IMG/VR virus record: IMGVR_UViG_3300028601_000033
Coordinates: 3,219-67,218 of that record
Strand: one strand, 5' to 3'
DNA: 64,000 nucleotides
Source: a virus
The position numbers and the translations under genes were made by a program. Positions 1,025 to 59,774 of the stretch are shown piece after piece (positions within the stretch are counted from its first letter, which is position 1; the number at the start of each line of letters is the position of its first letter). The notes under the pieces were generated by a model. That model ran no database searches. It had not been told where the DNA came from and saw only the letters and a program-made list of their open reading frames with translations.

Positions 1025-1593
1025 TGTATTATATTGATCATTCTGGTATTTGTAAACGTAATGGAATTAACATTGAAATAGTAATCAAACGTCAAGGTGG
1101 GAGCTCTATTTCAAGTTGGTTGAAAATGGGTAATGATGCAGTACAACTCTTGAACAGTGGTCTCGATATTAACCCGCAGGATATTGTATTCAAATACGAT
1201 ACAGCACTGCTACTCGTTAAGCCTACCGCTCCATTATACCATTCTACAATGGTTCAAGAGGTTGCTAGAAAGAAAAACTCATTTGCAATTAATCCTTTTA
1301 CTCGACAATTCACGATTGTAACTAAAACTGATATCGAAAAAACAAAGACATTGGTTAACGAAGAGATTACATGTCAATTTAAGTTTTTTGATATTACGTC
1401 TGAAGCAAATATCAGTGTACAAGTTAGTCTTCGAACTGCAAATGAGTTTGCCATGCAGCTGAGTGCCATAACAACGAATATCTTATACGGGATATTGAAA
1501 TTTAGTAATTCTCCTGATTTTATTGTCTATAATAATAGTCTTCCAGAATTCATGTCCAAGGCGTTTGCCGCATATTCTAAGTTAAAACTCTAA
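1024..1593 (+). CDS. hypothetical protein
   Basis: 189-aa ORF, TAATG coupling, GGAG RBS. Confidence 0.65.
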   Translation: MYYIDHSGICKRNGINIEIVIKRQGGSSISSWLKMGNDAVQLLNSGLDINPQDIVFKYDTALLLVKPTAPLYHSTMVQEVARKKNSFAINPFTRQFTIVTKTDIEKTKTLVNEEITCQFKFFDITSEANISVQVSLRTANEFAMQLSAITTNILYGILKFSNSPDFIVYNNSLPEFMSKAFAAYSKLKL

Positions 1594-1631
1594 AATCTAA
1601 TTAAACTCTATAGCTAAAAGGAGGTACAGAA

Positions 1632-1880
1632 ATGCATAAGAGATGTGCTAAGTGTAACCATCACATTTGGCTGAAAGAGTCTGTAGAAAGGGGGATGGGA
1701 CCGGTATGCGCTAAGAAGGACACTTCACAAAAACTTGTGTGGAATTTTAATCGTATACAATTCGAAATCAAGAGAAAGGAGTGTTCAAATGCATCACAAT
1801 TTGATCTGTCGAAATTGCGGTCTGACTTTCTCAAGTCACAAACAGAACAGTCCATTTGGTTTCCAGTGTCCTCTTCATGA
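1632..1880 (+). CDS. Zn-finger protein, DUF6011-like
   Basis: GGAGG RBS; CxxC...ES.ERGMGPVC motif. Confidence 0.6.
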   Translation: MHKRCAKCNHHIWLKESVERGMGPVCAKKDTSQKLVWNFNRIQFEIKRKECSNASQFDLSKLRSDFLKSQTEQSIWFPVSSS

Positions 1881-1995
1881 GGGTTTCGAGGATTGGCCAG
1901 ATCCTGAAACTGAAATGACGACTTACTTCAGTGCCACAGATAATTACCGAGATATCCCTCTGGGCACACCTTCAAAAAGGCTCACAAATGGCTGA
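1789..1995 (+). CDS. small Cys-rich hypothetical protein
   Basis: AAGGAG RBS before ATG 1789; CRNC...CPLH; overlaps the previous ORF. Confidence 0.4.
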   Translation: MHHNLICRNCGLTFSSHKQNSPFGFQCPLHEGFEDWPDPETEMTTYFSATDNYRDIPLGTPSKRLTNG

Positions 1996-2173
1996 ATGGA
2001 CAAATGTACCTGTAAAACAATTATCGGACACTGATGCAGAAAGGAAGGTAAAAGACTCAATAATTTTATTATCCACCGAGCCATACCTTCTGGATGACCC
2101 GGTGTTAGCTAGCAGTTTAAAAGGATTGGCAATTAAATTAGAATCTATTAAACCTAACACTAACCTGGAGTAG
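1988..2173 (+). CDS. hypothetical protein
   Basis: AAGG RBS before ATG 1988. Confidence 0.45.
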   Translation: MAEWTNVPVKQLSDTDAERKVKDSIILLSTEPYLLDDPVLASSLKGLAIKLESIKPNTNLE

Positions 2174-2176
2174 AAC

Positions 2177-2596
2177 ATGGATTGGTTAAATAGGCTACAT
2201 GGTCGTACACTGAAAAATGCAATCGATGATGTACATTGTAAGCTATGTGCAAACCCCTCTAATGAAAGATGTCTAAAGGCCTTGAGGGATCATTGCAATG
2301 CATGTAGGGAATGTATTGAAATTGCGTATTCATTGGATGTTATTGACCCTGTAGCCCACTTTCAATTACTATATACTGTGCCTTTATTTAAACTTATCCT
2401 ACAGGGTAGGATTAAGATTAATCACGGGGGATTGCAAATTGCACCATTATCAACATTTATCAAAAGTCAGGAGCCATTCAATTACGATTATAAATATATT
2501 GGCACATGTGGAGGGTGCGGTCAGAAGCGGGTAAAAATAGTTGAACTAGACTTTTGTTGGAACTGTTTCGATCTTTGGCAAGCAGGAAGGCTGTAG
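2177..2596 (+). CDS. Cys-rich (Zn-binding) hypothetical protein
   Basis: GGAG RBS; several CxxC motifs. Confidence 0.6.
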   Translation: MDWLNRLHGRTLKNAIDDVHCKLCANPSNERCLKALRDHCNACRECIEIAYSLDVIDPVAHFQLLYTVPLFKLILQGRIKINHGGLQIAPLSTFIKSQEPFNYDYKYIGTCGGCGQKRVKIVELDFCWNCFDLWQAGRL

Positions 2597-2802: not shown

Positions 2803-3024
2803 GTGAAGATGTTAAAGATTATTATTGATTATGAAAATATGCTTTATCCTCAAAATAAAGAAATGTTTAATAAGACAATTCCAGAAAAGGTCTGGTTCAA
2901 ACTACGTGAAGAGGCTCAGCGACTTCTTGATATCGGTACAGGCTCTCAAGAAGTTAAAGATCATTGGCGATCTATTGTTAAGGGGACGGTCCCATTTAAT
3001 TACTCAGTGTTGCCGGAGGATTAA
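2803..3024 (+). CDS. hypothetical protein
   Basis: AGGAG RBS; 73-aa ORF. Confidence 0.55.
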   Translation: MKMLKIIIDYENMLYPQNKEMFNKTIPEKVWFKLREEAQRLLDIGTGSQEVKDHWRSIVKGTVPFNYSVLPED

Positions 3025-3148
3025 TGCTTAAGATTGGCGATTTTATTTACGGTCTAAGGAGTGCAGCTGCACTTTAATGATATTTTAATAAATAAATGCA
3101 ATAAACTCTTAACATTTACAGTTACATATAAGGAAGATTGGTATATTT

Positions 3149-3352
3149 ATGACAGCTAGAAATCAACTCAAGATAGGTGATCGTATTGTCGTAAAAGATT
3201 ATGGACTTCTTGAGCTTGTCCCTGAGATAGATGACTGTGAGGGTTGCGTCTTTCTTGATAAAGATGGTTATCAATGTCTGGACCCGATGTATCTTAATTG
3301 TGGACTTGGTCATTTTATTGTCGTGAGGAGATCAGATGGGGACTCTAAATGA
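3149..3352 (+). CDS. hypothetical protein
   Basis: 67-aa ORF with CEGCVF...C pattern. Confidence 0.5.
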   Translation: MTARNQLKIGDRIVVKDYGLLELVPEIDDCEGCVFLDKDGYQCLDPMYLNCGLGHFIVVRRSDGDSK

Positions 3353-4966: not shown

Positions 4967-5425
4967 ATGGGTAAGTTGAAAGTACCTGAGCAACCAGGTA
5001 TGCGCCAAGGAATGACCAAACCGGAAAGACTTCATAGAGGTTCAATTAGAAGTCAAAAGAGATTAAATGCATTAAAGTTTGACCCTATAGGGGAGCTAGT
5101 AAAGCAATATCGTAATCTAGAAGAGGTAGTTGCTTTCTGGGTAAGAATAAGAGATGGTGTTCAAGTAGAACTGACCCAAAAGGGTCGTGTCAAAGCTTAT
5201 AATGCCAAAGCTCATATGGATGCTCATAACGCTCTCATTAATATAGGGGAAAAGTTACTTAGATATAATTATGGTCGTGTTCCTGAAGTTAATGAGGTTC
5301 AGATTACACAACCTACACCTATGTTTGTTCAGTTAACAGATCAGTGTACAGATGTTGTTACCATAAACCCTCCTATTCCCATTGAGTTTGATGTGGATAA
5401 AGATGACGACGAAGAGGACTTCTAA
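4967..5425 (+). CDS. probable terminase small subunit
   Basis: First gene after the motif, upstream of TerL; helical FDPI..L pattern, acidic tail. Confidence 0.5.
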   Translation: MGKLKVPEQPGMRQGMTKPERLHRGSIRSQKRLNALKFDPIGELVKQYRNLEEVVAFWVRIRDGVQVELTQKGRVKAYNAKAHMDAHNALINIGEKLLRYNYGRVPEVNEVQITQPTPMFVQLTDQCTDVVTINPPIPIEFDVDKDDDEEDF

Positions 5426-5650
5426 ATGGATATCTCTAAGAAGATTTGTGACGCTACAGATGAAGAATTGTTGATGGCTTTAATGAAGAGGAATGAACTC
5501 CATGTGGCACCTGCAAGGACAGAACGCTTTGGACTTCATTATGCATCTATTGTAGGGATAGGAAACGATCATACTGCTTTTATTACTGTGTATTGCGAAG
5601 ACTTAGCCAAACTTAAAGAGATCACTAAGGAGTTTCATTTCGATGACTGA
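5426..5650 (+). CDS. hypothetical protein (paralog of 5924-6109)
   Basis: TDEELL..L..RN.L..AP shared with 5924-6109. Confidence 0.6.
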   Translation: MDISKKICDATDEELLMALMKRNELHVAPARTERFGLHYASIVGIGNDHTAFITVYCEDLAKLKEITKEFHFDD

Positions 5651-16043: not shown

Positions 16044-19000
16044 ATGACCGTTAACGTAAATACTAAAATATCTGATAAAGTAATAGATAGAGCTGCTATG
16101 ATCAGACTCTATGAGAGGCGCATTAATAAAAAGGTTTCAGTAGTTATTGACGGTCATGAAGTTCGGGTAGATAAATTAATCAAAGATGCCAACTTATCTA
16201 CTGCTGGTTTTAATCGACTACGAGATGTTATTGATAAAGAAATCCAGGGGACGTTCAAGGAAATCAAAAACGTCTCTGAACGTTCCCTAGTGGATTTAGT
16301 GACCGATCAAGTATCTTTTGCATATCAAAACCTAGAAACAGCCTTGAGTAAAGTATGGCGTACTCAAAGACCTCAACGAAGAGTAGCTGAAGAGCTAGTT
16401 TTAAATCGTCCTATTTATAATGATAAAACATTATCCGTGGGATGGTCTTCAATAGGTCTTCAAGAACGTAAAAGACTTGAAGCGGTTATTCGGAAAGGTA
16501 TTGCAGACGGTAAAACCCCTAAGGAAATTGCATTAGCTGTTCGAAAAGGGAATGTTCATAATATCACTAGAAATCAATCTCAAGCATTAGTAACCACAGC
16601 GATAACAAGTGTACATGCCCAGGCAGACCACGAGGTCTATAAGGCCAATGAGAAAGTACTTCAAGGATGGCAATATATTGCAGTACTTGACTCAAGGACT
16701 ACTTCACTTTGTGCACATCGAGATGGTCAGATATATCCTATTGGGGATATTGAGCATTTACCTCCTTCACACTATAATTGTCGATCTACTACTACGCCTG
16801 TAGTGAAGTCATATGATGATTTAGCTAAGCTAGAAGGTATCGCCTATGTTCGTAAAAGAAATCTCAGTAAACTCTCTAAGAAGGATATTGAATTTTACGA
16901 TGGACAAACACCTCTTAAAGAGTCATATCATGAATGGCTTTTACGTCAAACACCCGAAATCCAGTTAAAGCATTTAGGTGATTACCGTAAAATGGAATTA
17001 TTCCAAAAAGGTCAGCTTCATGTGGATAAATTTATCAATGACCAAGGAAATTCTGTTGGTATTCGTGAACTAAGGTTGTTAACTGATGGTGGATATACAC
17101 TGCCAGGAGATACTAAGAGATTTGCCATTGCTAAATCTAAGCTCGATAGTATGCATTTAGGTGCTTCAACTCCAGATGATTTCCTCAGTGATAAAACCCG
17201 ACAGAAGGTTTTAGAGGACTATTATGTGTTACAGGCAAATGAGCTAGATGGTTATCTCTCATTGACTAACTATCGTGGTACTTTAATAAGTTCCAAAAAA
17301 GCTGTCCGTCGAAGCGTACTAAACATGCCACCCAGAGAAGACCAGCTTAAGTTTAATCCACTTACAGGTCGTTATGATGATGCCAGACTCTTTCAACCGA
17401 ATTATGGTGTATTTGAAAATAATATGCGATTAGTTCAAGAAAGTTCTGAACTTTTGCCTAGAGATAAGGAATTTATTTCTAGTGTTATTAATAATCTATC
17501 TGAACGACTAGGATTTAATGAAAGAGCTGTAATTGCTGACAATCTCCGTATTGTCTTTGGTAGGTATCGCTCCAACGGTGAGGTGTGGGGAAATCTCAAA
17601 GCTGTCCTCCAAGGACAAATTAAATTTGATGTGATGAACGTATCGGATGCTATTGAGACGCAACTCCGTAAAGATGTAAATGTACTCAAGAGACTAATGC
17701 AAACGGAATATCATGACTCTATTCTTGGGCCACTTCAACTTCAAGATCTACATGACAATTTTGTCAGTAACATTATAGCTAAGAATAAATGGGAAGATAC
17801 TGTTGCTCCCAAAATTGCTGAAGAACTAAGAACAGCTTTCGATTTAGACATTCCTGTGAAAATTAAGATGAGGCTTTCGGATCGTGATTTGCAGGAATTT
17901 TATCTTAAGTTTGCACATCGTTTAAGTCTTGCTGATTTGCCTGATAAAGATCAATTTGCTGTTTCTCTTGGTCGTGATCTATATAACATGGCAAACTGGA
18001 ATGGCAATAGACGAGCATGGTATAATTTAGGTGACAAGATATTAAACTCTAAGAATGCTAAGAAATTCTTTGAATTGGAAACCTTTGGTGTTCAAAAAAG
18101 GAGAATGAAAAGCCGTTTAAGCGGTCAATATTTCGGCCCTTATTATGATTCTTTAGGTTTTAATATCCGTATCACGGATGCGAGAATCCAAGAGTATGCA
18201 TTATTGACCAGAAAGGTTGAACTTGGTTTACGTGTAGGTGTAACTACAAAGAAGAACCGTTTAATCTTTCGTGAAGGTTATAAAACGTATTTTGTGGATA
18301 GAGGTCTTCTCGGTCATTATGACACCCGTATTCCAATCACATCTACTTCAAGCTTCAGTGATTTTCCTGTAGAATTCATAGATAAGAATATGGTTGATGC
18401 TTTGAATTGGGCAGCTAATGCTCAATATAAAGTAGACCCCGATTTCTATGATTTTATACATAAATTGTTGTACTTTGAGGATGATCGCGGTCGTGCTAAG
18501 TATTTCAATGAGCTTAATGAATATCGTAAATATATAGCTTCAAGAGGTGACTCCTATGAACGTTTTAAAGCTATGGAATGGTTGCGGAAAGGGGATTTGT
18601 CTTTTTCTAATCATCCTTTTATTGACCATCGGGCTAGGGTGTATGATCGGGGACTTATTGGCCCACAATCTGGAGAATCTTTTAGGCCGTTTTTAAATAC
18701 TGCTCATGAAAGGTTTCTCGGTGTTGATGGATATGATAACATCAAAGACCAAATAGGTGCCTTCCTAGGAGGTCTTAGTGACTACTTTGAAGGACACTAT
18801 AACTCTCTGTCATTTACAGGACGCCAAAAGATAGCCGATAAATGGCATAAGGATATTGTTGAGATAGGTCAACATATGCTTAGAGCTAAGCCTAATAATA
18901 TTCGTGCTGTCTTGGAGAATCCTGTATTGAAAGCTGTCGATGGTGAAGAGCAAGGTAAGTTCTTGAGGTTTGCTATCGAAATGGCAAAGATTGATAATTA

Positions 19001-20696
19001 TCTTGGTGGTAATTATTCAAAGAAATCCTTAGCAAGATTAGCTGAATATAGAACTGCTTTCGCTCTTGAGCAAGATGCTTCATCATCAGGTGCTCAGATT
19101 ATTGCCTTAACGACTAGAAATAAACAACTCGCTGAACTTAGTAATGTTATCCCGACGTATCAAAAGAGACGTCTGTACGATGAGATTGCGGCGTCCACCT
19201 TCAGAGATCCTAGGTTTCAAGAGATGAACCTTAAATTAGGCCTGACTGAAAAGGATCTACGTAAAGCTGCTAAAGCTCAAAACATGGTAACATTTTACGG
19301 GGCAGGTGAAAGGACTGGTATCCTTAATGTCGAAGGTAAACTAGCCAAAGTTCTGGGTAAAGATAAAGATGTCCTGGTGGTTAAGGCTTCAGATCGAGAT
19401 AAGGTTCTTAATGAGATTTCTGCAAGAATAGCTCGATATGAAAAGTTTGATCAAGAGTTATCTGATGAATTGAGAGCATTACGTGAAAATGTCAAAGATG
19501 TGTTTAACAAAGGGCTAGATCCTGGTGATGACATACTGGAGCAACTCTACTTCCTTGAACCTAAGACTAAAGAGCTTGTCGAGAATCTTTCGCATGCTTA
19601 TACTAAAGTAATCACTCCTTCTGATTTTAGAGATATTGCAAAGATCATGAGTGAGTACTTGCAAGAACAGGTTCCGATTCTGAAGGATTTTACGAGATAT
19701 TTCGGCAGATTGGCCGAAGATTTCCTAAGTAACGCTAAACCTTCTAAGGCGGATTTTGATTGGTCTTCAGTCGCTAAAATACGCCTTCTGAAACATAGGA
19801 ACAAGGGCTACTCAATTCCTCCAGAGTGGTGTCAGCTTCTCGGCACCAAGCCAGGTGAACCCTTGAGTGAAAAACTTCTGCGGAGGCTACCTTTCTGGAA
19901 GCCTAACGGCACTCTCCATGAGCTGATTTATGGAGCTGAAGTGCCGGACGACAGGCGTATCGCAGGGTCTATCTTTAAAATAGAATTAATTAAGGGTAAG
20001 CCGATTATTAACATCAAAGTTCCCTCCACCAAGGGAGGTAAGAAAGCCGTTAAGAATAACTTGCCTAAGAGTTGGACCAATGTTCCTTGGGTTAATTTTG
20101 ACGGTAAAGTTATCGAACAGAATTTTACGCAATCCTTCGAGGAACGTCTTGTTTATAAAGACAAGTATGGAAATTGGATTACCAATATTCTTCAAATACC
20201 TCAGAAGACAGAAGCTACTTGGTGGGAACAGCTTTCTAACAAGGCTGGTCAGATTAATGATATTGCAGATGCCACGAAAGCAAGAACCGCCTTTGCAGTT
20301 AACGGTAATCACTCGAATGATGCTGTTATCGTAAAGAGGTTTCATCTTTGGGGTAAGTCTAAAAACATACCGACATCATCTATACATGATGCCTTCTTTG
20401 CTAATGCTGCGGATATGCTTGAGGCTCGAAAAGCTTTAAGAAGTATTTATGCAGAGGTTCTTCAGAAAAATGTCATTAGACAAATACTGGATGAAATGCT
20501 AGCTAGAGGTTTACCTAAGAAACTATATGATAAGTACTTAGAAGAAGCCATTCTCAAAGGTCTTATTCCGGTACCTGGAAAATCTATTGTTGGCGGTAAA
20601 GTTTTAACGATTAAAGATATACTATCTGTGGATGATATATTAAAGAAGATTCCTGAAGGATTCCTCGATGACTATGGATGGTATGGTGTAGGTTAG
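16044..20696 (+). CDS. MuF/SPP1-gp7 head morphogenesis domain fused to T7-like single-subunit RNA polymerase (putative virion RNAP)
   Basis: N-term AVLDSRTT..C..RDG and PPSHYNCRS; C-term DHRARVY, motif A QDASSSGAQ, motif B RKAAKAQNMVTFYG, motif C IHDAF. Confidence 0.9.
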   Translation: MTVNVNTKISDKVIDRAAMIRLYERRINKKVSVVIDGHEVRVDKLIKDANLSTAGFNRLRDVIDKEIQGTFKEIKNVSERSLVDLVTDQVSFAYQNLETALSKVWRTQRPQRRVAEELVLNRPIYNDKTLSVGWSSIGLQERKRLEAVIRKGIADGKTPKEIALAVRKGNVHNITRNQSQALVTTAITSVHAQADHEVYKANEKVLQGWQYIAVLDSRTTSLCAHRDGQIYPIGDIEHLPPSHYNCRSTTTPVVKSYDDLAKLEGIAYVRKRNLSKLSKKDIEFYDGQTPLKESYHEWLLRQTPEIQLKHLGDYRKMELFQKGQLHVDKFINDQGNSVGIRELRLLTDGGYTLPGDTKRFAIAKSKLDSMHLGASTPDDFLSDKTRQKVLEDYYVLQANELDGYLSLTNYRGTLISSKKAVRRSVLNMPPREDQLKFNPLTGRYDDARLFQPNYGVFENNMRLVQESSELLPRDKEFISSVINNLSERLGFNERAVIADNLRIVFGRYRSNGEVWGNLKAVLQGQIKFDVMNVSDAIETQLRKDVNVLKRLMQTEYHDSILGPLQLQDLHDNFVSNIIAKNKWEDTVAPKIAEELRTAFDLDIPVKIKMRLSDRDLQEFYLKFAHRLSLADLPDKDQFAVSLGRDLYNMANWNGNRRAWYNLGDKILNSKNAKKFFELETFGVQKRRMKSRLSGQYFGPYYDSLGFNIRITDARIQEYALLTRKVELGLRVGVTTKKNRLIFREGYKTYFVDRGLLGHYDTRIPITSTSSFSDFPVEFIDKNMVDALNWAANAQYKVDPDFYDFIHKLLYFEDDRGRAKYFNELNEYRKYIASRGDSYERFKAMEWLRKGDLSFSNHPFIDHRARVYDRGLIGPQSGESFRPFLNTAHERFLGVDGYDNIKDQIGAFLGGLSDYFEGHYNSLSFTGRQKIADKWHKDIVEIGQHMLRAKPNNIRAVLENPVLKAVDGEEQGKFLRFAIEMAKIDNYLGGNYSKKSLARLAEYRTAFALEQDASSSGAQIIALTTRNKQLAELSNVIPTYQKRRLYDEIAASTFRDPRFQEMNLKLGLTEKDLRKAAKAQNMVTFYGAGERTGILNVEGKLAKVLGKDKDVLVVKASDRDKVLNEISARIARYEKFDQELSDELRALRENVKDVFNKGLDPGDDILEQLYFLEPKTKELVENLSHAYTKVITPSDFRDIAKIMSEYLQEQVPILKDFTRYFGRLAEDFLSNAKPSKADFDWSSVAKIRLLKHRNKGYSIPPEWCQLLGTKPGEPLSEKLLRRLPFWKPNGTLHELIYGAEVPDDRRIAGSIFKIELIKGKPIINIKVPSTKGGKKAVKNNLPKSWTNVPWVNFDGKVIEQNFTQSFEERLVYKDKYGNWITNILQIPQKTEATWWEQLSNKAGQINDIADATKARTAFAVNGNHSNDAVIVKRFHLWGKSKNIPTSSIHDAFFANAADMLEARKALRSIYAEVLQKNVIRQILDEMLARGLPKKLYDKYLEEAILKGLIPVPGKSIVGGKVLTIKDILSVDDILKKIPEGFLDDYGWYGVG

Positions 20697-24558: not shown

Positions 24559-24635
24559 GCTCTTATAGCTTTAATTGGAAGAGCGACTGACTTGTAATCA
24601 GTAGGTTGTAGGTTCGAGTCCTACTAAGAGCTCCA
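24559..24635 (+). tRNA. tRNA-Thr(UGU)
   Basis: Acceptor GCTCTTA/TAAGAGC, anticodon arm CTGA-CTTGTAA-TCAG, T-loop GGTTCGAGTCC, encoded CCA. Confidence 0.95.
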
Positions 24636-46236: not shown

Positions 46237-47832
46237 ATGCGTGCAAGATTAATTGAATCAATCGCACAAAGACTCAAAGAAGAAATCGCACCTCAAAACC
46301 CTATCAAGTTTCTTAAGAAATTCGAGGTAGATGAATATATCGATGATGTAATATCTACAGTGTATTTGTATACAAGAGCTAAAAAGGGAAGTTCACACAA
46401 TACAATATATTTCGTAGAAGTAGCATCAGCTATAGGGCATTCTGTCAGGAATAAATTGAAGCAAAAAAGAAATTCATCTGTTGCTGTCAAAGCAGGCTCC
46501 TTCCTCTTGTATTCCTTTGAAATCCTGCAAATACTTCAAGTTGTATTAGGTCAGGGTAAAAATCATCACGCAAGTTACATTGTCCAGATGTTGGATGATG
46601 ACTGCTTACATGATTTGTGGAATAACATAGATACAGCCACAAATGAAAAATTACCCTCATTAAAACCTTATGCACCTTGGAACTCCTCTAAGCATGAAAC
46701 CGGTATATCAATTGTAAAAACCAAAAATAAAGATGTGTTAAGTATACTACATCCAGATACTCATCCATTAATATTTAATAGTTTGAATAAGTCTCAAGCT
46801 GTAGGTTGGAGAATAAATGAAGATATCTTTAACATTCACTTGTGGGCACTTCGTAACAAAACCAAAGCCTTCTCTGAAATTTGGGATTCTCAAAACCCCG
46901 AGGCTAAAACAACTAAACTGCGAGAAGCTAAAGCGATAGGTTCAATTGCTCAAAGATTTCTCAAATCTAAATTTTACCATCTGTACTATTATGATTTCAG
47001 AGGTCGTAAATACACATCAACAGCATATCTACATGAACAGGGTTCAGACCTAGCTAGAGGTTTATTACTGCGTGATGATTGCAAGCCAATCGGACCTGAG
47101 GGGTTCTTTTGCCTAATGGTGAGTATTGCTTCAAACTGGGCAGGTGATGCAGGCAGAGAAGACGGTGCAAAGACAGATAAAATACCACTGAAAGAACGAT
47201 ATTTATGGGCAATGGATAATGAAGAAATTTTATTATCCTATGCTGAATCACCGAAAATCCATCAAGGTTGGATGGACGCAGATAAGCCATGGCAATTCCT
47301 GGCTGCATGTATGGAACTAAAGAAGCTGCGAGAATGGCAATTTAAGAAAGGTGATCCAATGAATCCTTTCGAAGATTATTCTTATAAAAGTCATCTTGAG
47401 GCTTATATTGATGGGTCGAATAATGGTTCCCAACATCTGACAGCCTTAACAAGAGACGAGGTAACTGCACCTCACGTTAATCTTGTACCGCAATCACTCC
47501 CAGGTGATTTGTATAAATATATTGCAGATCATGTTTGGGAACGGTTGAATGAAACATATTCAAAACTATCAGCCACAGAAATCCAAGAGTGTAATCTATT
47601 CATTGACAAACTTGTCGATCTTAAGACAAAAATACATAACGAACCATCTGGAAGTGAGTTGCGACAAGCCCTTGTCGATGAGATTAAAATCTTAAAAGAA
47701 CAAAGTAGCCACCTAGGAGATAAACCATCAGTAGTCTTTTGGATGAAAATTGTAGATGCTAAACATAAGAGAAAAGTGGTTAAGCGTAATGTTATGACAC
47801 TCCCATATGGTGGAACTGCATATGGCTTGGGT
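46237..47832 (+). CDS. T7-like single-subunit RNA polymerase, exon 1
   Basis: DFRGRKY, DKPWQFLA, motif A IDGSNNGSQH, motif B RKVVKRNVMTLPYG. Confidence 0.92.
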
Positions 47833-48624
47833 TAATTCGGCTCAAGTAAAACTCCTCTAATTGCTGGGACATCCCTCTGGGACAATCAGCAGCGAAGCTA
47901 TACCGCCAATTAGTGTTTATCAAAGGAATATCGAAATGCCTTTTCAGAAATTTACTTTTATAGATTCTCCATCTAACATGAGTACCCGCACAATGCCTAA
48001 ATCAGGCGATTTGATCAGAAACCAACAAAATACCGGTAACTTCATCAACATCATACTTAGTGTATCATCACCTCGGAATGATGATAAGGGTATATTTGTG
48101 TATATTCGGAGTGTTAGATTTGCCAAATATAATGCTAGAGGAAAAACACCTATTACTTACCTAAAAGGCACACGATCTAGAAGTTTTAAATTTTATGTTT
48201 CAGTACCACAACAATCACATTGGCACCTAACTCGCTGTAATTGGCAATTGGTCAAACTACAAAAAGCAGTAGCTTTCAAAGAACAACGACTTTATGAGGT
48301 TATAGTTGAAGATGGTAAAGAAATTGCACGACATATAAGAACAGTCCGAAGGCCTTATGGGTTTGTAGATGTAGATAACCTAGATCAACGTATGCAAATT
48401 GTGGAAGCGTTAAAAGATGTAGATACGACATACAAGGCGCCTGAAGGCGTAAATTAATCATACACTTGGCGGTGTAGAACGTTCAACGACTATCCGTAAG
48501 GAGTACTAGGCAAGTGCCTGGGAAATGGGGAGACACTTAGGTGTAAGATATAGTCTGGTCTATATGGTAACATATAGCTGGTTTCATACCGGGGTAGAAG
48601 TAACGATTCTATCTGAACATAACG
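47833..48624 (+). mobile_element. group I intron (IA2-like) in the RNAP gene
   Basis: P1 CTTGGGT/GCTCAAG with U.G at the splice site; AATTGCTGGG/AATCAGCAG, GTTCAACGACTA, AAGATATAGTC; terminal G 48624; splicing restores YGLG|QQQI in frame. Confidence 0.92.
47936..48457 (+). CDS. intron-encoded protein of unknown family (173 aa, basic)
   Basis: AAGGA RBS; looped out of P6 (ACCGCCAA...TTGGCGGT); no GIY-YIG, HNH or LAGLIDADG motif visible. Confidence 0.7.
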   Translation: MPFQKFTFIDSPSNMSTRTMPKSGDLIRNQQNTGNFINIILSVSSPRNDDKGIFVYIRSVRFAKYNARGKTPITYLKGTRSRSFKFYVSVPQQSHWHLTRCNWQLVKLQKAVAFKEQRLYEVIVEDGKEIARHIRTVRRPYGFVDVDNLDQRMQIVEALKDVDTTYKAPEGVN

Positions 48625-49278
48625 CAGCAACAAATCAATGATGCAAAGAAACATGGTATAGATCTATTGCTTTACATGGAACATAAGTGGGGTGCATTTC
48701 TAGGAAGAGAAGTCTTTGAAGACTGTCGCATATCTTTAAAGAGACCTATGCAGTTATTGTCAATCTTTGAACAAGCAGGTAAACAAGCAGAGATTGATGG
48801 CAGGTTCTTATCTTGGATTGTACCGGTCACAGATTTTCCAGTTGTACAAAATTATGTAGAAGGAAAGATTAAGAAAGTATATGTGCAATATGGTCCTCCA
48901 AGGGGAAAAAGAAATAGTTCTGGTTATTATGACAACACACTTCAGCTCAATGTATGTTTCATCGAAGACCCGATTCCTTCCAAAAGAAAACAAGCTCAAG
49001 GAGCCAGTCCAAATGCAATCCACAGTTTAGATGCAGCGCACTTAACGATGATTGTTAATGCTTGTGATTTTCCAGTAACAACCATTCATGATTCGTTTGG
49101 ATGTTTACTAGCAGATATGCCTGTATTATTCAGGATTGTACGTGAAACATTTGTTGAGTTGTACAAGCACGACCCTTTAACGCAAATAATGAAGTACATT
49201 GGAGGTGATATCAGCGATGTAAAGTTAGGAACATTGGACTTATCTTTAGTATTAGATTCAGAATTCTGTTTTTGTTAA
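48625..49278 (+). CDS. T7-like single-subunit RNA polymerase, exon 2
   Basis: W..P...FPVVQ.Y, SPNAIHSLDAAHL, motif C IHDSF. Confidence 0.92.
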   Translation, partial: QQQINDAKKHGIDLLLYMEHKWGAFLGREVFEDCRISLKRPMQLLSIFEQAGKQAEIDGRFLSWIVPVTDFPVVQNYVEGKIKKVYVQYGPPRGKRNSSGYYDNTLQLNVCFIEDPIPSKRKQAQGASPNAIHSLDAAHLTMIVNACDFPVTTIHDSFGCLLADMPVLFRIVRETFVELYKHDPLTQIMKYIGGDISDVKLGTLDLSLVLDSEFCFC

Positions 49279-54529: not shown

Positions 54530-54907
54530 ATGATAAAGGCATATGTAGCAGATAAAATTTATTATTTTGAAGAAGATAATTTTATCACGTTGATTGAGAA
54601 ATTTTGCACAAGTGAGTTTAATCTAATTGGACTTGCTAGCGCTATAATCCCTAAAGATGATAAAAGAGTCAATAAGATACTCCACAAAGATCTAGAAGAA
54701 ACTTATGATCTTATATTTCAAATGAGAGGGCATAAAGTTAATCAAACTACCATGACCTTCATCGAATGTGATATTGTATTAGTTCCAAATGAACTTGGAT
54801 TCAAGCACACTGGCGAGGAGTTTAAGACTACGAAAGCGATTCTAAATGTTAAAAGTCCCCACACTGTCTACAAAGTCACTATTGAAGAAGCCCACCCCTC
54901 TCCCTAG
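54530..54907 (+). CDS. hypothetical protein
   Basis: GAGG RBS, 125 aa. Confidence 0.55.
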   Translation: MIKAYVADKIYYFEEDNFITLIEKFCTSEFNLIGLASAIIPKDDKRVNKILHKDLEETYDLIFQMRGHKVNQTTMTFIECDIVLVPNELGFKHTGEEFKTTKAILNVKSPHTVYKVTIEEAHPSP

Positions 54908-55340
54908 GTTTCAAAATGGCCATTGGCACTTTCCAGAGCAGATGGGTGACGGCGTAGGTTTCATTTATGTTATACGAGATGCTTATCTACGCCGTTTTTA
55001 TTTAGGACAAAAACGCTTTAAAGGTACAGGAAAAATAAACGGAGGTAAAGAATCTAATTGGCGTAATTATAAAACATCGTCTAAATTGATGGCTGACCTT
55101 TTTAAAGAGAGACCTTTAGATGAATTCGAGTTTATCTGTATTGAGCAATATAAGACCAAGGGATGCTTGACATATGCTGAAACATGGTCTCTGTGCTTAG
55201 TGGAAGCTCCTACTACAGTTGACTGGTACAATAAAAGACTAGAAAGGATATCTTGGAATGTAACAGAACGGATTACTGACAGGCATAAAGAGAGATTACA
55301 ACGAGTAATTTCTTGGGACATTTTTAATGAGCTATTTTAA
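54846..55340 (+). CDS. free-standing GIY-YIG-like endonuclease (start uncertain)
   Basis: GFIYVI......FYLGQK, W..Y..SS, E..., YN. Confidence 0.7.
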   Translation: MLKVPTLSTKSLLKKPTPLPRFQNGHWHFPEQMGDGVGFIYVIRDAYLRRFYLGQKRFKGTGKINGGKESNWRNYKTSSKLMADLFKERPLDEFEFICIEQYKTKGCLTYAETWSLCLVEAPTTVDWYNKRLERISWNVTERITDRHKERLQRVISWDIFNELF

Positions 55341-55352
55341 TAAAGGTGAATA

Positions 55353-57002
55353 ATGGGTAAAATTGTAACCTATCATCAACCTTGTTTGAATCCTGATTGT
55401 GGTTCGTCAGATGCACGTAATGTGTATGAAGACGGAACATCATTTTGCTTTTCTTGTCAAACATGGTTTTCAAAAGAGGCCAATGCAGATTTTATACCAA
55501 CTAATAAAACACCTAAGGTCCCTTCATTGAGAAAAGAACTATCATTGTTAGAAATTGCGGAATTGCCGATACGAGGTTTTCAAGAAAGAGACATCACTAA
55601 GCAAGTTACAGAATTCTTTGATGTGAGAGTCTCATATAATGAGAATGGCGAAATAGATACACACTATTATCCATATGATGGTAATAAAGCTTTTAAGGTA
55701 AGAAAGCTACCGAAAGATTTTGTGTGGATTAATAAGTCTACGAACTTATTTGGGATAGATAAGTTTAACAGTGGTGGAAGAAGGGTTGTTATTACAGAAG
55801 GTGAAATTGATGCCTTAAGTGTAGCGCAAGCAACATTAGATAAATGGAATAAGATTTATCCTGTAGTGGCAATGTCATCAGCATCAATGACTAAGTCTTT
55901 ATTGGAAAATAGAGATTGGCTGCGGTCTTTTAAAGAGGTAGTTTTATGTCTCGATGAAGATGAAGCTGGTGAGAAAGCTAGAACTGAAGCAATAAGAATA
56001 ATTGGTTTAGATAAAGTAAAAATTGCTAAACTTCCTGAAAAAGACCCTAATGCTGTATTGGTTAAACATGGCAGCGCAAGACTAAATCAAGCTATCTTCG
56101 ATGCAGCGCCCTATATTCCTGCAGGAATTATCGATAAAGATAAGCTTTGGGCTAGTCTTGAGGACTACAATTCTATCACCTCAGTGCCATTTCCTCCTTG
56201 TCTAGAAGGTGTTAATACTAAGACCAAGGGTAAGAGACTCGGTGAAATAACCCTTTTTATATCTGGGACAGGTTCCGGTAAAAGCACAATAATTCGTGAA
56301 TGTATCTTGGATGATGTTAAAAATAATTTAACCCCTGAGGAAAAGGTTGGTATAATAGCCTTAGAAGAAGGCCCACCTGAGACTGCAAGAAAGCTAGCGG
56401 GGATGGCCATTGATAAAAATCCTGCAAAAGAAGAAATTCCATTAAGTGAATTAAAAGTTGGCTTTGATCAAGTATTTGGAGATGACAAAGTTCTTCTTCT
56501 AGATCACCATGGTTCTATTACTGACAATAGTTTAGTTGATCAACTTGAATATATGTGTCTCATGGGATGCAAATATATCTATATTGATCATATAACAATC
56601 TTAGTTTCGGAGGGTGTAGAAAATTTACACGGCAATGAAGCTCAAGATAAAATTATGAATGACTTACTACGTCTTGTAAAAAGACACCCCGTTTGGATTG
56701 GCTTGATTTCTCATTTAAGAAAAGCACAAAGTGGAAGTAAATCCTTTGAAGAAGGAAAATTACCCTCCATTGATGATATAAGAGGTTCTGGCTCAATAAA
56801 GCAAATATCTTTCGATATAATTGCATTTGCTAGAAATATGATCTCTGATAATGTAGTTGAAAGAAATACTATTTTAATGCAAGTTTTAAAATGTCGTTAC
56901 ACTGGCTTGACAGGTAATGTCAAGGGAGCCAGGTATGTTTATGATACCGGAAGGTTGATTGCTTGTACAACTCCTGCATCTGAAGAATTTCACGTACTTT
57001 AA
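55353..57002 (+). CDS. primase-helicase (T7 gp4-like)
   Basis: Zn finger C...CGSSDA..CFSC, TOPRIM EGEIDA and DEDEAG, Walker A GTGSGKST, IDHI, RGSGSIKQ. Confidence 0.95.
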   Translation: MGKIVTYHQPCLNPDCGSSDARNVYEDGTSFCFSCQTWFSKEANADFIPTNKTPKVPSLRKELSLLEIAELPIRGFQERDITKQVTEFFDVRVSYNENGEIDTHYYPYDGNKAFKVRKLPKDFVWINKSTNLFGIDKFNSGGRRVVITEGEIDALSVAQATLDKWNKIYPVVAMSSASMTKSLLENRDWLRSFKEVVLCLDEDEAGEKARTEAIRIIGLDKVKIAKLPEKDPNAVLVKHGSARLNQAIFDAAPYIPAGIIDKDKLWASLEDYNSITSVPFPPCLEGVNTKTKGKRLGEITLFISGTGSGKSTIIRECILDDVKNNLTPEEKVGIIALEEGPPETARKLAGMAIDKNPAKEEIPLSELKVGFDQVFGDDKVLLLDHHGSITDNSLVDQLEYMCLMGCKYIYIDHITILVSEGVENLHGNEAQDKIMNDLLRLVKRHPVWIGLISHLRKAQSGSKSFEEGKLPSIDDIRGSGSIKQISFDIIAFARNMISDNVVERNTILMQVLKCRYTGLTGNVKGARYVYDTGRLIACTTPASEEFHVL

Positions 57003-57021
57003 CTACCTTCAAGGAGTAAAA

Positions 57022-57973
57022 ATGCTTAAGAAAGAAGATTTGCCAAAAATTGAGCCTGATTGGAGTACCATTGGTTATTTGACATATAAAAGAACTTACG
57101 CTAGACCTCTGAATGATGGCACTGATGCAACTGAAGAATTTAAAGATACCATTTATCGTATTCTAGAAGCATGTTGTCATCAATTTCATTGTGGCTTCAA
57201 CGAAGATGAAGAGTATCGTCTGGCAAAATATTTCCTCGGACTTAAATGTTCAGTAGCGGGGCGTTACCTATGGCAGGCCGGTACAAAGACAGTAGACAGG
57301 CTTGGTCTTGCCTCACTACAGAATTGTGCCTTTACTGTTGTAGATGATCCTATTAGGCCGTTCACGTGGTGCATGGATATGCTTGCACTTGGCTCTGGAG
57401 TTGGCTACAACATTCAGAGAGAACATATTGATAAATTGCCTAAAGTACGCCCTTGGTTTAAAGCACCAACCCGTGTTGACGACGCAGGTGCTGATTTTAT
57501 AGTCCCTGATTCTCGTGAAGGTTGGGTAAGACTTCTTGGCAAGACACTCAAGGCTGCTTTCCTTTCTAAAACACCTAATAAAGGTACTTTTACGTATTGT
57601 ACCATGGTTGTTCGTGGGAAAGGGACACCTATTAAAGGCTTTGGAGGAATCGCATCTGGCCCAGAAGACCTTTGCTGGGGTATTGCCGAGATTTCAAAGA
57701 TACTCCTTAAACGTAGTGGTCGTAAGATTCGACCGATTGATGCACTTGATATTATGAATCTCATCGGTCATATTATTGTTGCAGGTAATGTACGCAGAAG
57801 TGCTCAAATAGCTATTGGAGATCCTGACGATGTCGAATTTCTCTTAGCTAAAAGATGGGATATGGGCAATATCCCTAAATGGAGAGCCATGTCTAATAAC
57901 TCTGTGGCCTGTAATGATATTAACGATTTGCACGAGTATTTTTGGGAAGGTTACGAGGGTAAAGGTGAACCGT
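57022..57973 (+). CDS. nrdJ: class II (B12-dependent) ribonucleotide reductase, exon 1
   Basis: TYKRTYAR, AGR.LW, NCAF, GSGVG, VAGNVRRSA, RAMSNNS. Confidence 0.9.
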
Positions 57974-58800
57974 TAAACCTAGCGGCTTGAGCTGGTAACA
58001 GCTTTTGAATAATCTATCTAAAAACAGGGGATATCCTATCAGGACAATCCTGTGCTAACTCGTTATGAGGAGTGCAACGACTATGAGTGATAACAAAGAC
58101 GTAAGTAAGAGACTCTATTACTATTCTACCTTCGATGGATATCTAGATAATAGAGGTGAAAATCGAAACTCGAGATTATCTGTAACTATGTTAGAGAAAA
58201 ATTCAGATTATATTTACGAGGTCGCTCTTACTCTAGAAGAGGCTGATATTGGTTATATACTTTGGAGACCTGCTCTGAACAGGCATGATGGTTATGCAAG
58301 AAAACAACAAATCAGAGTTCAATCTAAAGCACATCCGAAACTCACAAAGATTCGTAAACGAATATACATAGATAATAAAAAAGTAATTGATCCACATATG
58401 TTAACGCTATTGGATGCTCAAGCATTAGCAATTATTTTTATGGCAGATGGGAGCAGAAAATCTTGTATACTCGCATCTGGGAAAGATAATCCACTTTTCA
58501 GGATACATACTAATGGTTTCAGTTATGGTGACAATTGGCTCCTGAAGAAAGCTATAAAAGAACGCTTTGATTTGGAATTCAATGTTGAGCGACAAGCTAC
58601 GGACAAGTGGGGCTTGTATCTTCGTAAAAAAGACAACGAAAAATTTGAGAGTATCATATCGCCATTTATTTTAGAGAGCTTTCGTTATAAACTCGAACGA
58701 TAGACCCCTGAAAAGGGTGATGATATAGTCTGTTCTGTATGGTAACATACAGAGATTGGCAGAAATGACCAATCCCTGCGAATGCAGAGTAACAAAAAAG
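57974..58800 (+). mobile_element. group I intron in nrdJ
   Basis: P1 CCGT/GCGG with U.G; GTGCAACGACTA and GATATAGTC core; terminal G 58800; splicing rebuilds GEP-Y(T|AT)-GLINL. Confidence 0.92.
58083..58703 (+). CDS. intron-encoded two-motif LAGLIDADG homing endonuclease
   Basis: YYYSTFDGYL and LAIIFMADGS motifs; HT.GFS. Confidence 0.85.
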   Translation: MSDNKDVSKRLYYYSTFDGYLDNRGENRNSRLSVTMLEKNSDYIYEVALTLEEADIGYILWRPALNRHDGYARKQQIRVQSKAHPKLTKIRKRIYIDNKKVIDPHMLTLLDAQALAIIFMADGSRKSCILASGKDNPLFRIHTNGFSYGDNWLLKKAIKERFDLEFNVERQATDKWGLYLRKKDNEKFESIISPFILESFRYKLER

Positions 58801-59774
58801 ATGGCTTAATAAACCTTAAACTATCCCGCAAGTGTGGCCGTATAGGAGAATTTCAGTATCCTGATATAAAAATACAGGGCTATAACCCCTGTGGAGAACA
58901 GTCTCTTGAACCTTTTGAGACTTGTTGTCTAGCTGAAGTATTCTTGCCAAATGTTAAATCTAAAGAAGAATTGCTTGATATTTGTGAATTGCTTTATCGC
59001 ATAAATAAACATTCCTTGATGCTTCCATCCCACCATCCGGAGACCGAAGAAGTAGTTCATCGTAATATGCGCATGGGAATTGGAATGACCGGGATATTGC
59101 AAGCTTCAGAGGAACAAAGAAGTTGGTTGAATGAAACTTATGAATATCTTAGAGACTTTGATATAGAGTACTCTGATCTTCATAACTTTAATCGCTCAAT
59201 TAAACTAACTACAGTGAAACCTTCCGGCACATTAAGCTTGTTACCTGGAGTAACCCCTGGGATTCATCCTGCAATTGCACAATTTATGTATAGAAGGATT
59301 CGAATTGCATCTGAGCATATGCTCGTAGAGATTTGTAAGAAGAACGGTTATCCAGTTGAATTTGTTAGAAACTTCGATGGTTCAGAAGATTATGGTACTG
59401 TCGTTGTAACATTCCCCTTCAAATACCCAGATGGTACTGTTCTTGCTAAAGACATGACTGCATTGCGGCAGCTAGGCGAAATCAAAAGGATGCAAGAAGA
59501 GTGGTCTGATAATAGTGTCTCATGTACAATCTATTACACAAAGGAGGAAATGCCTGAGATAAAAGAGTATTTGAGAAAGAACTATTCAGATAATCATAAA
59601 AGCCTATCTTTTCTATTGAGATTTGATCATGGCTTTGACCAAGCACCCTATGAGGAAATCACGGAGGAACAATACTATGCGTTACTAAATTCGACTAAAA
59701 TGATCAGTAGTATTGAAGACGCTAACTTTGAAGCATTTGATGAATGTGCTTCTGGTGCTTGCCCTATTCGTTAA
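58801..59774 (+). CDS. nrdJ: class II ribonucleotide reductase, exon 2
   Basis: NPCGEQ active site, TTVKPSGT, NSVSCT, QAPYEEI, C-terminal CASGACP. Confidence 0.92.

Follow-up and report, generated by a model that had tools for sequence, protein, structure and literature searches.

Results

Organisation of the polymerase locus

The window, the whole stretch of 64,000 nucleotides analysed here, belongs to a viral IMG/VR record of 67,218 bases with a completeness rating of 98%. Its genes lie almost all on the + strand, and among them is a gene for a T7-type single-subunit RNA polymerase (RNAP), divided into two exons by an insert that carries a protein-coding gene of its own (Table 1). A scan for promoters and terminators stayed at chance level (13 found vs. 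15 expected).

Table 1. Position of the polymerase exons, the intron, its gene and its RNA helices in the window.
Feature	Position	Strand	Details or basis
RNAP exon 1	46237..47832	+	532 codons; DFRGR (D253/R257), motif A (D392), motif B (R512, K516, Y524, G525)
Group IA2 intron	47833..48624	+	792 nt; opened by in-frame TAA at 47833-47835, closed by G48624
Intron gene	47936..48457	+	173 codons + stop; AAGGA 8 nt before ATG
RNAP exon 2	48625..49278	+	217 codons + stop; motif C (H687/D688, spliced numbering)
P1	47826..47846	+	exon CUUGGGU (47826-47832) paired with internal guide GCUCAAG (47840-47846)
P3, 5' strand (CUCCUC)	47852..47857	+	partner 48527-48532
P4 around P5	47862..47891	+	P4: 47862-47867 with 47886-47891; P5: 47872-47875 with 47879-47882; fold
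P6 and P6a, 5' strands	47892..47909	+	P6: 47892-47894 (partner 48480-48482); P6a: 47898-47909 (partner 48466-48477); fold
P6a and P6, 3' strands	48466..48482	+	P6a: 48466-48477; P6: 48480-48482; fold
P7	48488..48555	+	GACUA 48488-48492 with UAGUC 48551-48555; fold, alignment
Elements inside P7		+	P7.1 48493-48502; P7.2 48506-48521; P3 3' strand 48527-48532; P8 48533-48544
P9, P9.1, P9.2	48560..48613	+	P9 48560-48577; P9.1 48578-48592; P9.2 48593-48613; fold

Both parts of the polymerase gene match the Pfam family RNA_pol (PF00940), exon 1 over profile positions 1-174 (E 3.1e-37) and exon 2 over positions 248-366 (E 7.6e-22). Exon 1 ends with ...GGCTTGGGT and runs directly into the in-frame TAA, so that, as a first-pass annotation made from the letters of the window had deduced, production of the full-length polymerase would depend on splicing. 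Exon 2 begins with CAGCAACAA and has no start codon at its opening; the first in-frame starts, TTG 48667 and ATG 48676, lie 14-17 codons in, and a search for a Shine-Dalgarno sequence before these two codons revealed none. Judged by the coding sequence, removal of the insert restores an uninterrupted RNAP frame of 2250 nt, the predicted product being a protein of 749 aa in which YGLG is joined to QQQI at the junction.

Comparison with known polymerases bears out this reconstruction. The 749-aa product matches T7 at every one of the residues D421, R425, D537, R627, K631, Y639, G640, H811 and D812, with D392, K516, Y524 and D688 of the spliced protein aligned to T7 D537, K631, Y639 and D812. On T7 gene 1 the junction maps to R647/Q648, 8 residues past the motif-B tyrosine Y639, in keeping with the earlier placement of the insert a few codons after motif B. 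The RNAP of the roseophage DSS3_VP1 (Naomviridae) is a continuous protein of 732 aa with 35% identity; exon 1 aligns up to its residue 528 (YGGTEYGMG) and exon 2 from residue 529 (QQVIED). The 749-aa T7-type product and its junction, both predicted in the first-pass annotation, are thus exact when set against DSS3_VP1, T7 and the intronless IMG/VR relatives L006-L012 described below.

Polymerases of the coliphage N4 type were also considered. A natural two-subunit split at the junction, as in N4, was ruled out, since the family phrog_2051, which appears to correspond to N4 gp16, matches both exon 1 (314-440) and exon 2 (149-217). The Kayfunavirus polymerases annotated as 'N4-like' were likewise set aside, being ordinary continuous genes of 888 aa. 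Elsewhere in the window, at 16044-20693, the structural block encodes a protein of 1550 aa with a Phage_Mu_F domain (residues 145-250) and a C-terminal RNA_pol PF00940 match (1391-1488). It is a candidate for a second single-subunit RNAP carried in the virion, which by analogy with N4 would transcribe the early genes, leaving later ones to the T7-type enzyme.

Identity and fold of the ribozyme core

At the gathering score, an Rfam scan of the whole window returned a tRNA as its only match and no Intron_gpI. A single tRNA-Thr (anticodon TGT) lies at 24559-24635, inside the structural region. Local searching with Intron_gpI (RF00028) gave 34.6 bits against a gathering score of 50 (E 8.4e-7). The score falls below gathering because the P6a loop of 556 nt, with its gene of 522 nt, breaks the alignment to the model: the confident match is confined to the 3' core (AAGAUAUAGUCU and P9), and the 5' part is matched separately, with 12 bits. 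For the sister intron of locus L013, whose core is free of any gene, the score is 81.8 bits.

When the 792-nt intron was compared by blastn with 50,697 phage records, 370 were matched. Group I introns, known or annotated as such, made up the matches displayed. They included the gp72/gp73 region of phiKZ, matched in two pieces (75.7%, E 1e-10), Staphylococcus phage features carrying the label intron_gpI and the td introns of T4-like phages (79.5% over the final 77 nt). The 5' splice site lies directly after U47832, and G48624 is the last base of the intron. P1 comprises 7-9 bp, and its U47832.G47840 wobble marks the 5' splice site.

For folding of the core, the P6a loop with its gene was replaced by script with a filler of 4 bases. 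The minimum-energy fold contained P1, P3, P4, P5, P6, P6a (12 bp, with the intron gene in its loop), P7.1, P7.2, P8, P9, P9.1 and P9.2, and when the 3' half of the intron was folded alone P7 formed as well, enclosing also the conserved AAGAUAUAGUC stretch. The energy z-score of this half was a modest -1.87, and the argument from folding therefore rests on topology and not on energy. The core pairs, counted with P1 and P6a left out and with the P3/P7 pseudoknot helices included, are canonical in 56 of 56 cases. Of the 56 pairs, 50 are preserved at the aligned positions of the phiKZ core, 10 of them through two-sided changes, and 52 at those of the L013 intron, 18 of them in this way; within P7.2 the two related introns show 2 and 4 compensatory changes. 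The covariation alignment comprises three sequences only and is supportive, not statistical.

Taken as three lines of evidence, homology, folding and covariation settle the group I identity of the insert. The helices named in the first-pass annotation (P1, P3, P4, P7, P7.1/7.2 and P8) were all recovered by folding or alignment, and its intron of 792 nt, with the U.G pair in P1 and a terminal G, stands with the coordinates unchanged. An intein was ruled out by the stop codons and the RNA structure. In the scheme of Michel and Westhof, subgroup IA2 is reportedly marked by two additional helices, P7.1 and P7.2, which follow P7 and precede the 3' strand of P3, and on this definition the presence of both assigns the intron to IA2.

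Intron-containing and intronless relatives

Searching IMG/VR with exon 1 yielded 58 loci which, together with the window, make 59 polymerase genes. No extra nucleotide (0 nt) separates the exon matches in L006-L012 (54-88% identity), and the 49 more distant loci show small length differences only (-165 to +30 nt). All 56 scorable relatives are therefore continuous across the insertion site of the window; L029 was left unscored because the locus ends before exon 2. The alignment to intronless homologues proposed in the first-pass annotation is accordingly seamless, DSS3_VP1 and T7 being continuous too, and homologues encoding the two halves as separate subunits, which it had named as contrary evidence, are absent among the 56.

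These data bear on the notion that the insert is retained in the RNA and that the polymerase works as two polypeptides. It has a precedent in the insert within the g39 DNA polymerase of coliphage 10Gb, from which two subunits reportedly arise (bioRxiv 10.1101/542787). A caveat to splicing also comes from the phiKZ gp72 region, the closest ribozyme relative, where an intron has been predicted since 2002 and where one transcriptome study, under the conditions it used, saw no evidence of splicing in its own data (PMC10914365). Against such an arrangement stand the continuity of all 56 scorable relatives, the intact ribozyme core with its full set of pairs, P7, terminal G and U.G pair, and the beginning of exon 2, whose nearest start codons are the internal TTG and ATG lacking a visible Shine-Dalgarno sequence. 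Two separately translated polypeptides are consequently very improbable, and a spliced group I intron is the reading retained here.

The two nearest relatives, L006 (88% protein identity) and L007 (86%), are both intronless, and the intronless alleles read GGTTTGGGTCAGCAACAA across the junction. L013 (85%) carries a different group I intron of 708 nt (715-1422 of the locus), which opens with TAA and closes with G. It follows KIVKR (T7 R632/S633), 45 nt upstream of the site used in the window, and holds a gene with HNH_3 and AP2 domains after P9. Across the 45 nt between the two intron sites, the four close alleles (window, L006, L007 and L013) differ at one position.

Other hosts of the same intron lineage were sought by a pattern scan of IMG/VR for its P7 region, which produced at least 114 matches. 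Two of the 80 loci fetched, L096 and L149, are flanked by exons of single-subunit RNAPs. In L096, the intron (about 1300-2293, minus strand) interrupts motif B itself, exon 1 ending at the equivalent of T7 L637. In L149, the intron (about 1235-2270; Rfam 91.5 bits) lies past the motif A region, exon 1 ending at about residue 430 in the numbering of the L007 protein. Three sites in motif B (window, L013 and L096) thus fall within 45 nt, with one elsewhere (L149). Introns in single-subunit RNAP genes recur at several sites yet form a small minority: among the 59 polymerase genes, with L029 unscored, an intron occupies the site of the window in 1 and any site in 2.

This distribution also informs the suggestion that the intron is a regulatory gate, through which splicing dependent on GTP or on growth state would time or throttle the production of a middle/late RNAP. 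Such a role would accord with the fact that every full-length polymerase must go through splicing, and with a published idea that splicing of phage group I introns tracks the growth state of the host. A regulatory device would, however, be expected to be conserved, and the sporadic occurrence of the intron counts against one; in L006 and L007 the same polymerase comes from an uninterrupted gene, and L013 has a different intron at another position. The timing or nutrient gate put forward in the first-pass annotation is thus unsupported, and we regard it as improbable. Since the nearest relatives make the same polymerase without it, the intron is dispensable, and it behaves like an optional selfish insert, not a built-in regulator.

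On these grounds, we are confident that 47833-48624 is an optional group I intron of mobile type, subgroup IA2, inserted 8 codons past the motif-B tyrosine of a gene for a T7-type single-subunit RNAP. Its anatomy, its homology to known introns, the seamless junction and the intronless alleles are read directly from the DNA, and splicing itself is what they predict. A search for RNA sequencing runs containing this stretch returned none.

The protein encoded in the P6a loop

The gene in the P6a loop probably begins at the ATG given in Table 1, to which the starts of its relatives align; the 198-aa form in the database, which results from gene callers starting it wrongly at TTG 47861, is probably too long. 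Its product has no Pfam or PHROG match, and a tblastn search of the 50,697 cultured phage records found no match. Only one close homologue was identified (P0005, 47%). A HMMER scan of 1.84 billion representatives retrieved 43 cluster representatives at E <= 0.001, the entry from the window included. Family members are mostly 117-140 aa long and match about residues 18-100 together with a C-terminal VDTxY motif. The conserved columns are N38, R58, S59, R61, G78, R80, S81, R82 and W103, and the family alignment has no conserved acidic or histidine column. In one member, P0009, an HNH part (phrog_959, 1e-14; weak NUMOD4/HNH_3) stands before the family domain. Annotation of the rest of the 43 members gave two weak matches, each to a single member: PF21171 (E 0.0023) and the unnamed phrog_37683 (E 2.9e-4).

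Structure prediction by AlphaFold with an alignment produced a confident, mostly-beta model (pLDDT 90.4, pTM 0.81), while the single-sequence model was uninformative (pLDDT 29.9). Foldseek searches of PDB and BFVD with the intron protein returned nothing at E <= 0.001, the ESM Atlas held no match at 0.9 or above, and a search of PDB sequences with the family profile found nothing related (best E 0.72). Comparison with 48,161 chains in VIA-align gave a best Z of 5.3, for small barrels of the SH3/Tudor/KOW type; seven rows, at Z 4.1-4.5 over 80-86 residues, were MazF/Kid, and the tool rates all these matches as within the range of chance. These weak matches, together with the predicted model, suggest that the family may adopt a small beta-barrel fold.

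A known nuclease family or motif was thus found neither by the Pfam, PHROG and family annotation nor by the fold and PDB-profile searches, and by sequence the protein falls outside any known homing-endonuclease family. Active homing by the product of the intron is for this reason no more than putative. The protein is real and conserved, and it probably binds nucleic acid, to judge by its basic conserved residues and its single occurrence as the tail of an HNH enzyme.

In the five IMG/VR loci examined, family members are free-standing genes in co-directional arrays of replication genes; a search for an Rfam intron signal at E <= 0.01 was negative in all five. In L075 the family member follows a DNA ligase. 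In L079, a related contig with the same arrangement of DNA polymerase, exonuclease and SegE as the window, a free-standing member (2848-3339) lies directly after the gene for family-A DNA polymerase and before that for the 5'-3' exonuclease. The genome of the window has one copy, inside the intron. Context searches with individual members were less productive: P0005 had one weak match of 27 residues in IMG/VR (L064) and none in the metagenome collection, P0006 gave no locus, and P0009 returned matches to its HNH part only.

A tentative and rather unlikely proposal is that, with the gene of 173 aa, an undescribed family of mobile-element proteins is seen inside an intron for the first time; the family has about 43 representatives, normally about 125 aa long and free-standing among replication genes, and once fused behind an HNH domain. 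It would then be either a new class of homing endonuclease with none of the known catalytic motifs or a nuclease-free DNA-recognition module that needs a nuclease in trans. If so, the free-standing copy of L079 and the intron-borne copy of the window would record the colonisation of an intron by a mobile gene that had until then stood alone.

Other homing-type elements in the genome

The gene for a class II ribonucleotide reductase is also split, its N-terminal part (56959-57987) being separated from its barrel domain (58782-59771) by a gap at about 57988-58790. A LAGLIDADG_2 endonuclease gene (58065-58700) occupies the gap. On either side of this gene lies an Intron_gpI match below threshold (36.2 and 20.2 bits), and the GAUAUAGUCUG...P9 core is again present; this insert is very probably a second group I intron of the genome. 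A free-standing gene of the SegE type (GIY-YIG) lies at 54846-55337, between the genes for the 5'-3' exonuclease and the primase-helicase; L079 has a similar SegE-type gene at 5179-5634. Together with the intron in the polymerase gene, the LAGLIDADG element and the SegE gene indicate that the genome carries several homing-type elements.

Discussion

In group I splicing, guanosine attacks the 5' splice site, the freed 3'-OH of the upstream exon attacks after the terminal G, and the exons are ligated. In the polymerase transcript, the core helices P1-P9.2 would form in the pre-mRNA, the attack of a free guanosine nucleotide would come after U47832 at the P1 U.G pair, and the freed 3'-OH of exon 1 would attack after G48624, exon ligation giving the message for the 749-aa polymerase. 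A ribosome on unspliced RNA would halt at the TAA with which the intron opens and release a fragment of 532 aa that lacks motif C. The intron gene would be translated from its own ribosome-binding site, and its protein, in which no endonuclease is recognisable, would most likely bind nucleic acid, either as a remnant of the mobility of the element or in its service. On this reading splicing would neutralise the cost of carrying the intron, a selfish passenger and not a regulator.

Among known systems, the T4 td intron, also of subgroup IA2, has P7.1 and P7.2 and carries the gene for I-TevI in its P6a loop. It resembles the window intron in its final 77 nt, as given above, and differs in its host, thymidylate synthase, and in encoding a GIY-YIG endonuclease. 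At the DNA level the closest ribozyme is that of the phiKZ gp71/gp72/gp73 intron (L065, NC_004629), with 168 of 222 aligned bases identical (75.7%) and the 10 compensatory pair changes already noted; the two introns agree in their helices and have the 3' end (CUGAACAUAACG) in common. The host of the phiKZ intron is a gene for a multisubunit beta-like polymerase, unrelated to T7-type enzymes, and its HNH gene precedes the core instead of occupying P6a, which in phiKZ is a short hairpin. The L013 intron shares with that of the window the polymerase gene, the subgroup and both termini, but it differs in its upstream site, in the location of its HNH-AP2 gene and in its core, which is only 65% identical.

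A parallel by description is the g16 intron of the G7C/N4-like coliphages N4G2 and Sz33, for which splicing was demonstrated by RT-PCR (Babenko et al., 2019; bioRxiv 10.1101/542787). It is likewise of group I type, about 800 bp long with an internal gene, and located in a T7-like RNAP gene at a motif-B junction (peptide QAVMTAFYGSEAK). According to the same source, its host gene belongs to a podovirus family and encodes the large subunit (RNAP2) of a polymerase with two subunits, and its internal gene is predicted to be a homing nuclease. The literature searches made for this analysis returned no paper on a group I intron in a gene for a T7-type single-subunit polymerase. For the jumbo phage PhiPA3, a putative group I intron has been described in gp210, an essential RNAP gene, at a conserved site of the catalytic region (Birkholz et al., 2024; PMC11620839); there the host is a multisubunit beta subunit, and the HNH endonuclease of the intron was shown to cut the gene of a rival phage.

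With the motif-B g16 intron and the polymerase introns of jumbo phages already published, the intron described here is not new in kind. The first-pass annotation had treated the single-subunit RNAP as an uncommon host, a view that does not hold in the light of the g16 intron and of L013, L096 and L149.

The consequence for annotation is that this phage group has a single polymerase of 749 aa in place of two genes and a hypothetical gene. The locus provides a clean case with a natural allele series (no intron, the window intron, and an HNH intron 45 nt away) and adds to growing evidence that group I introns land repeatedly in motif B of single-subunit RNAPs. Beyond this, interest centres on the allele series and the orphan intron gene, the latter being the only possibly new opening: its protein, should it prove to act as a nuclease or in targeting, would add to the known homing machinery.
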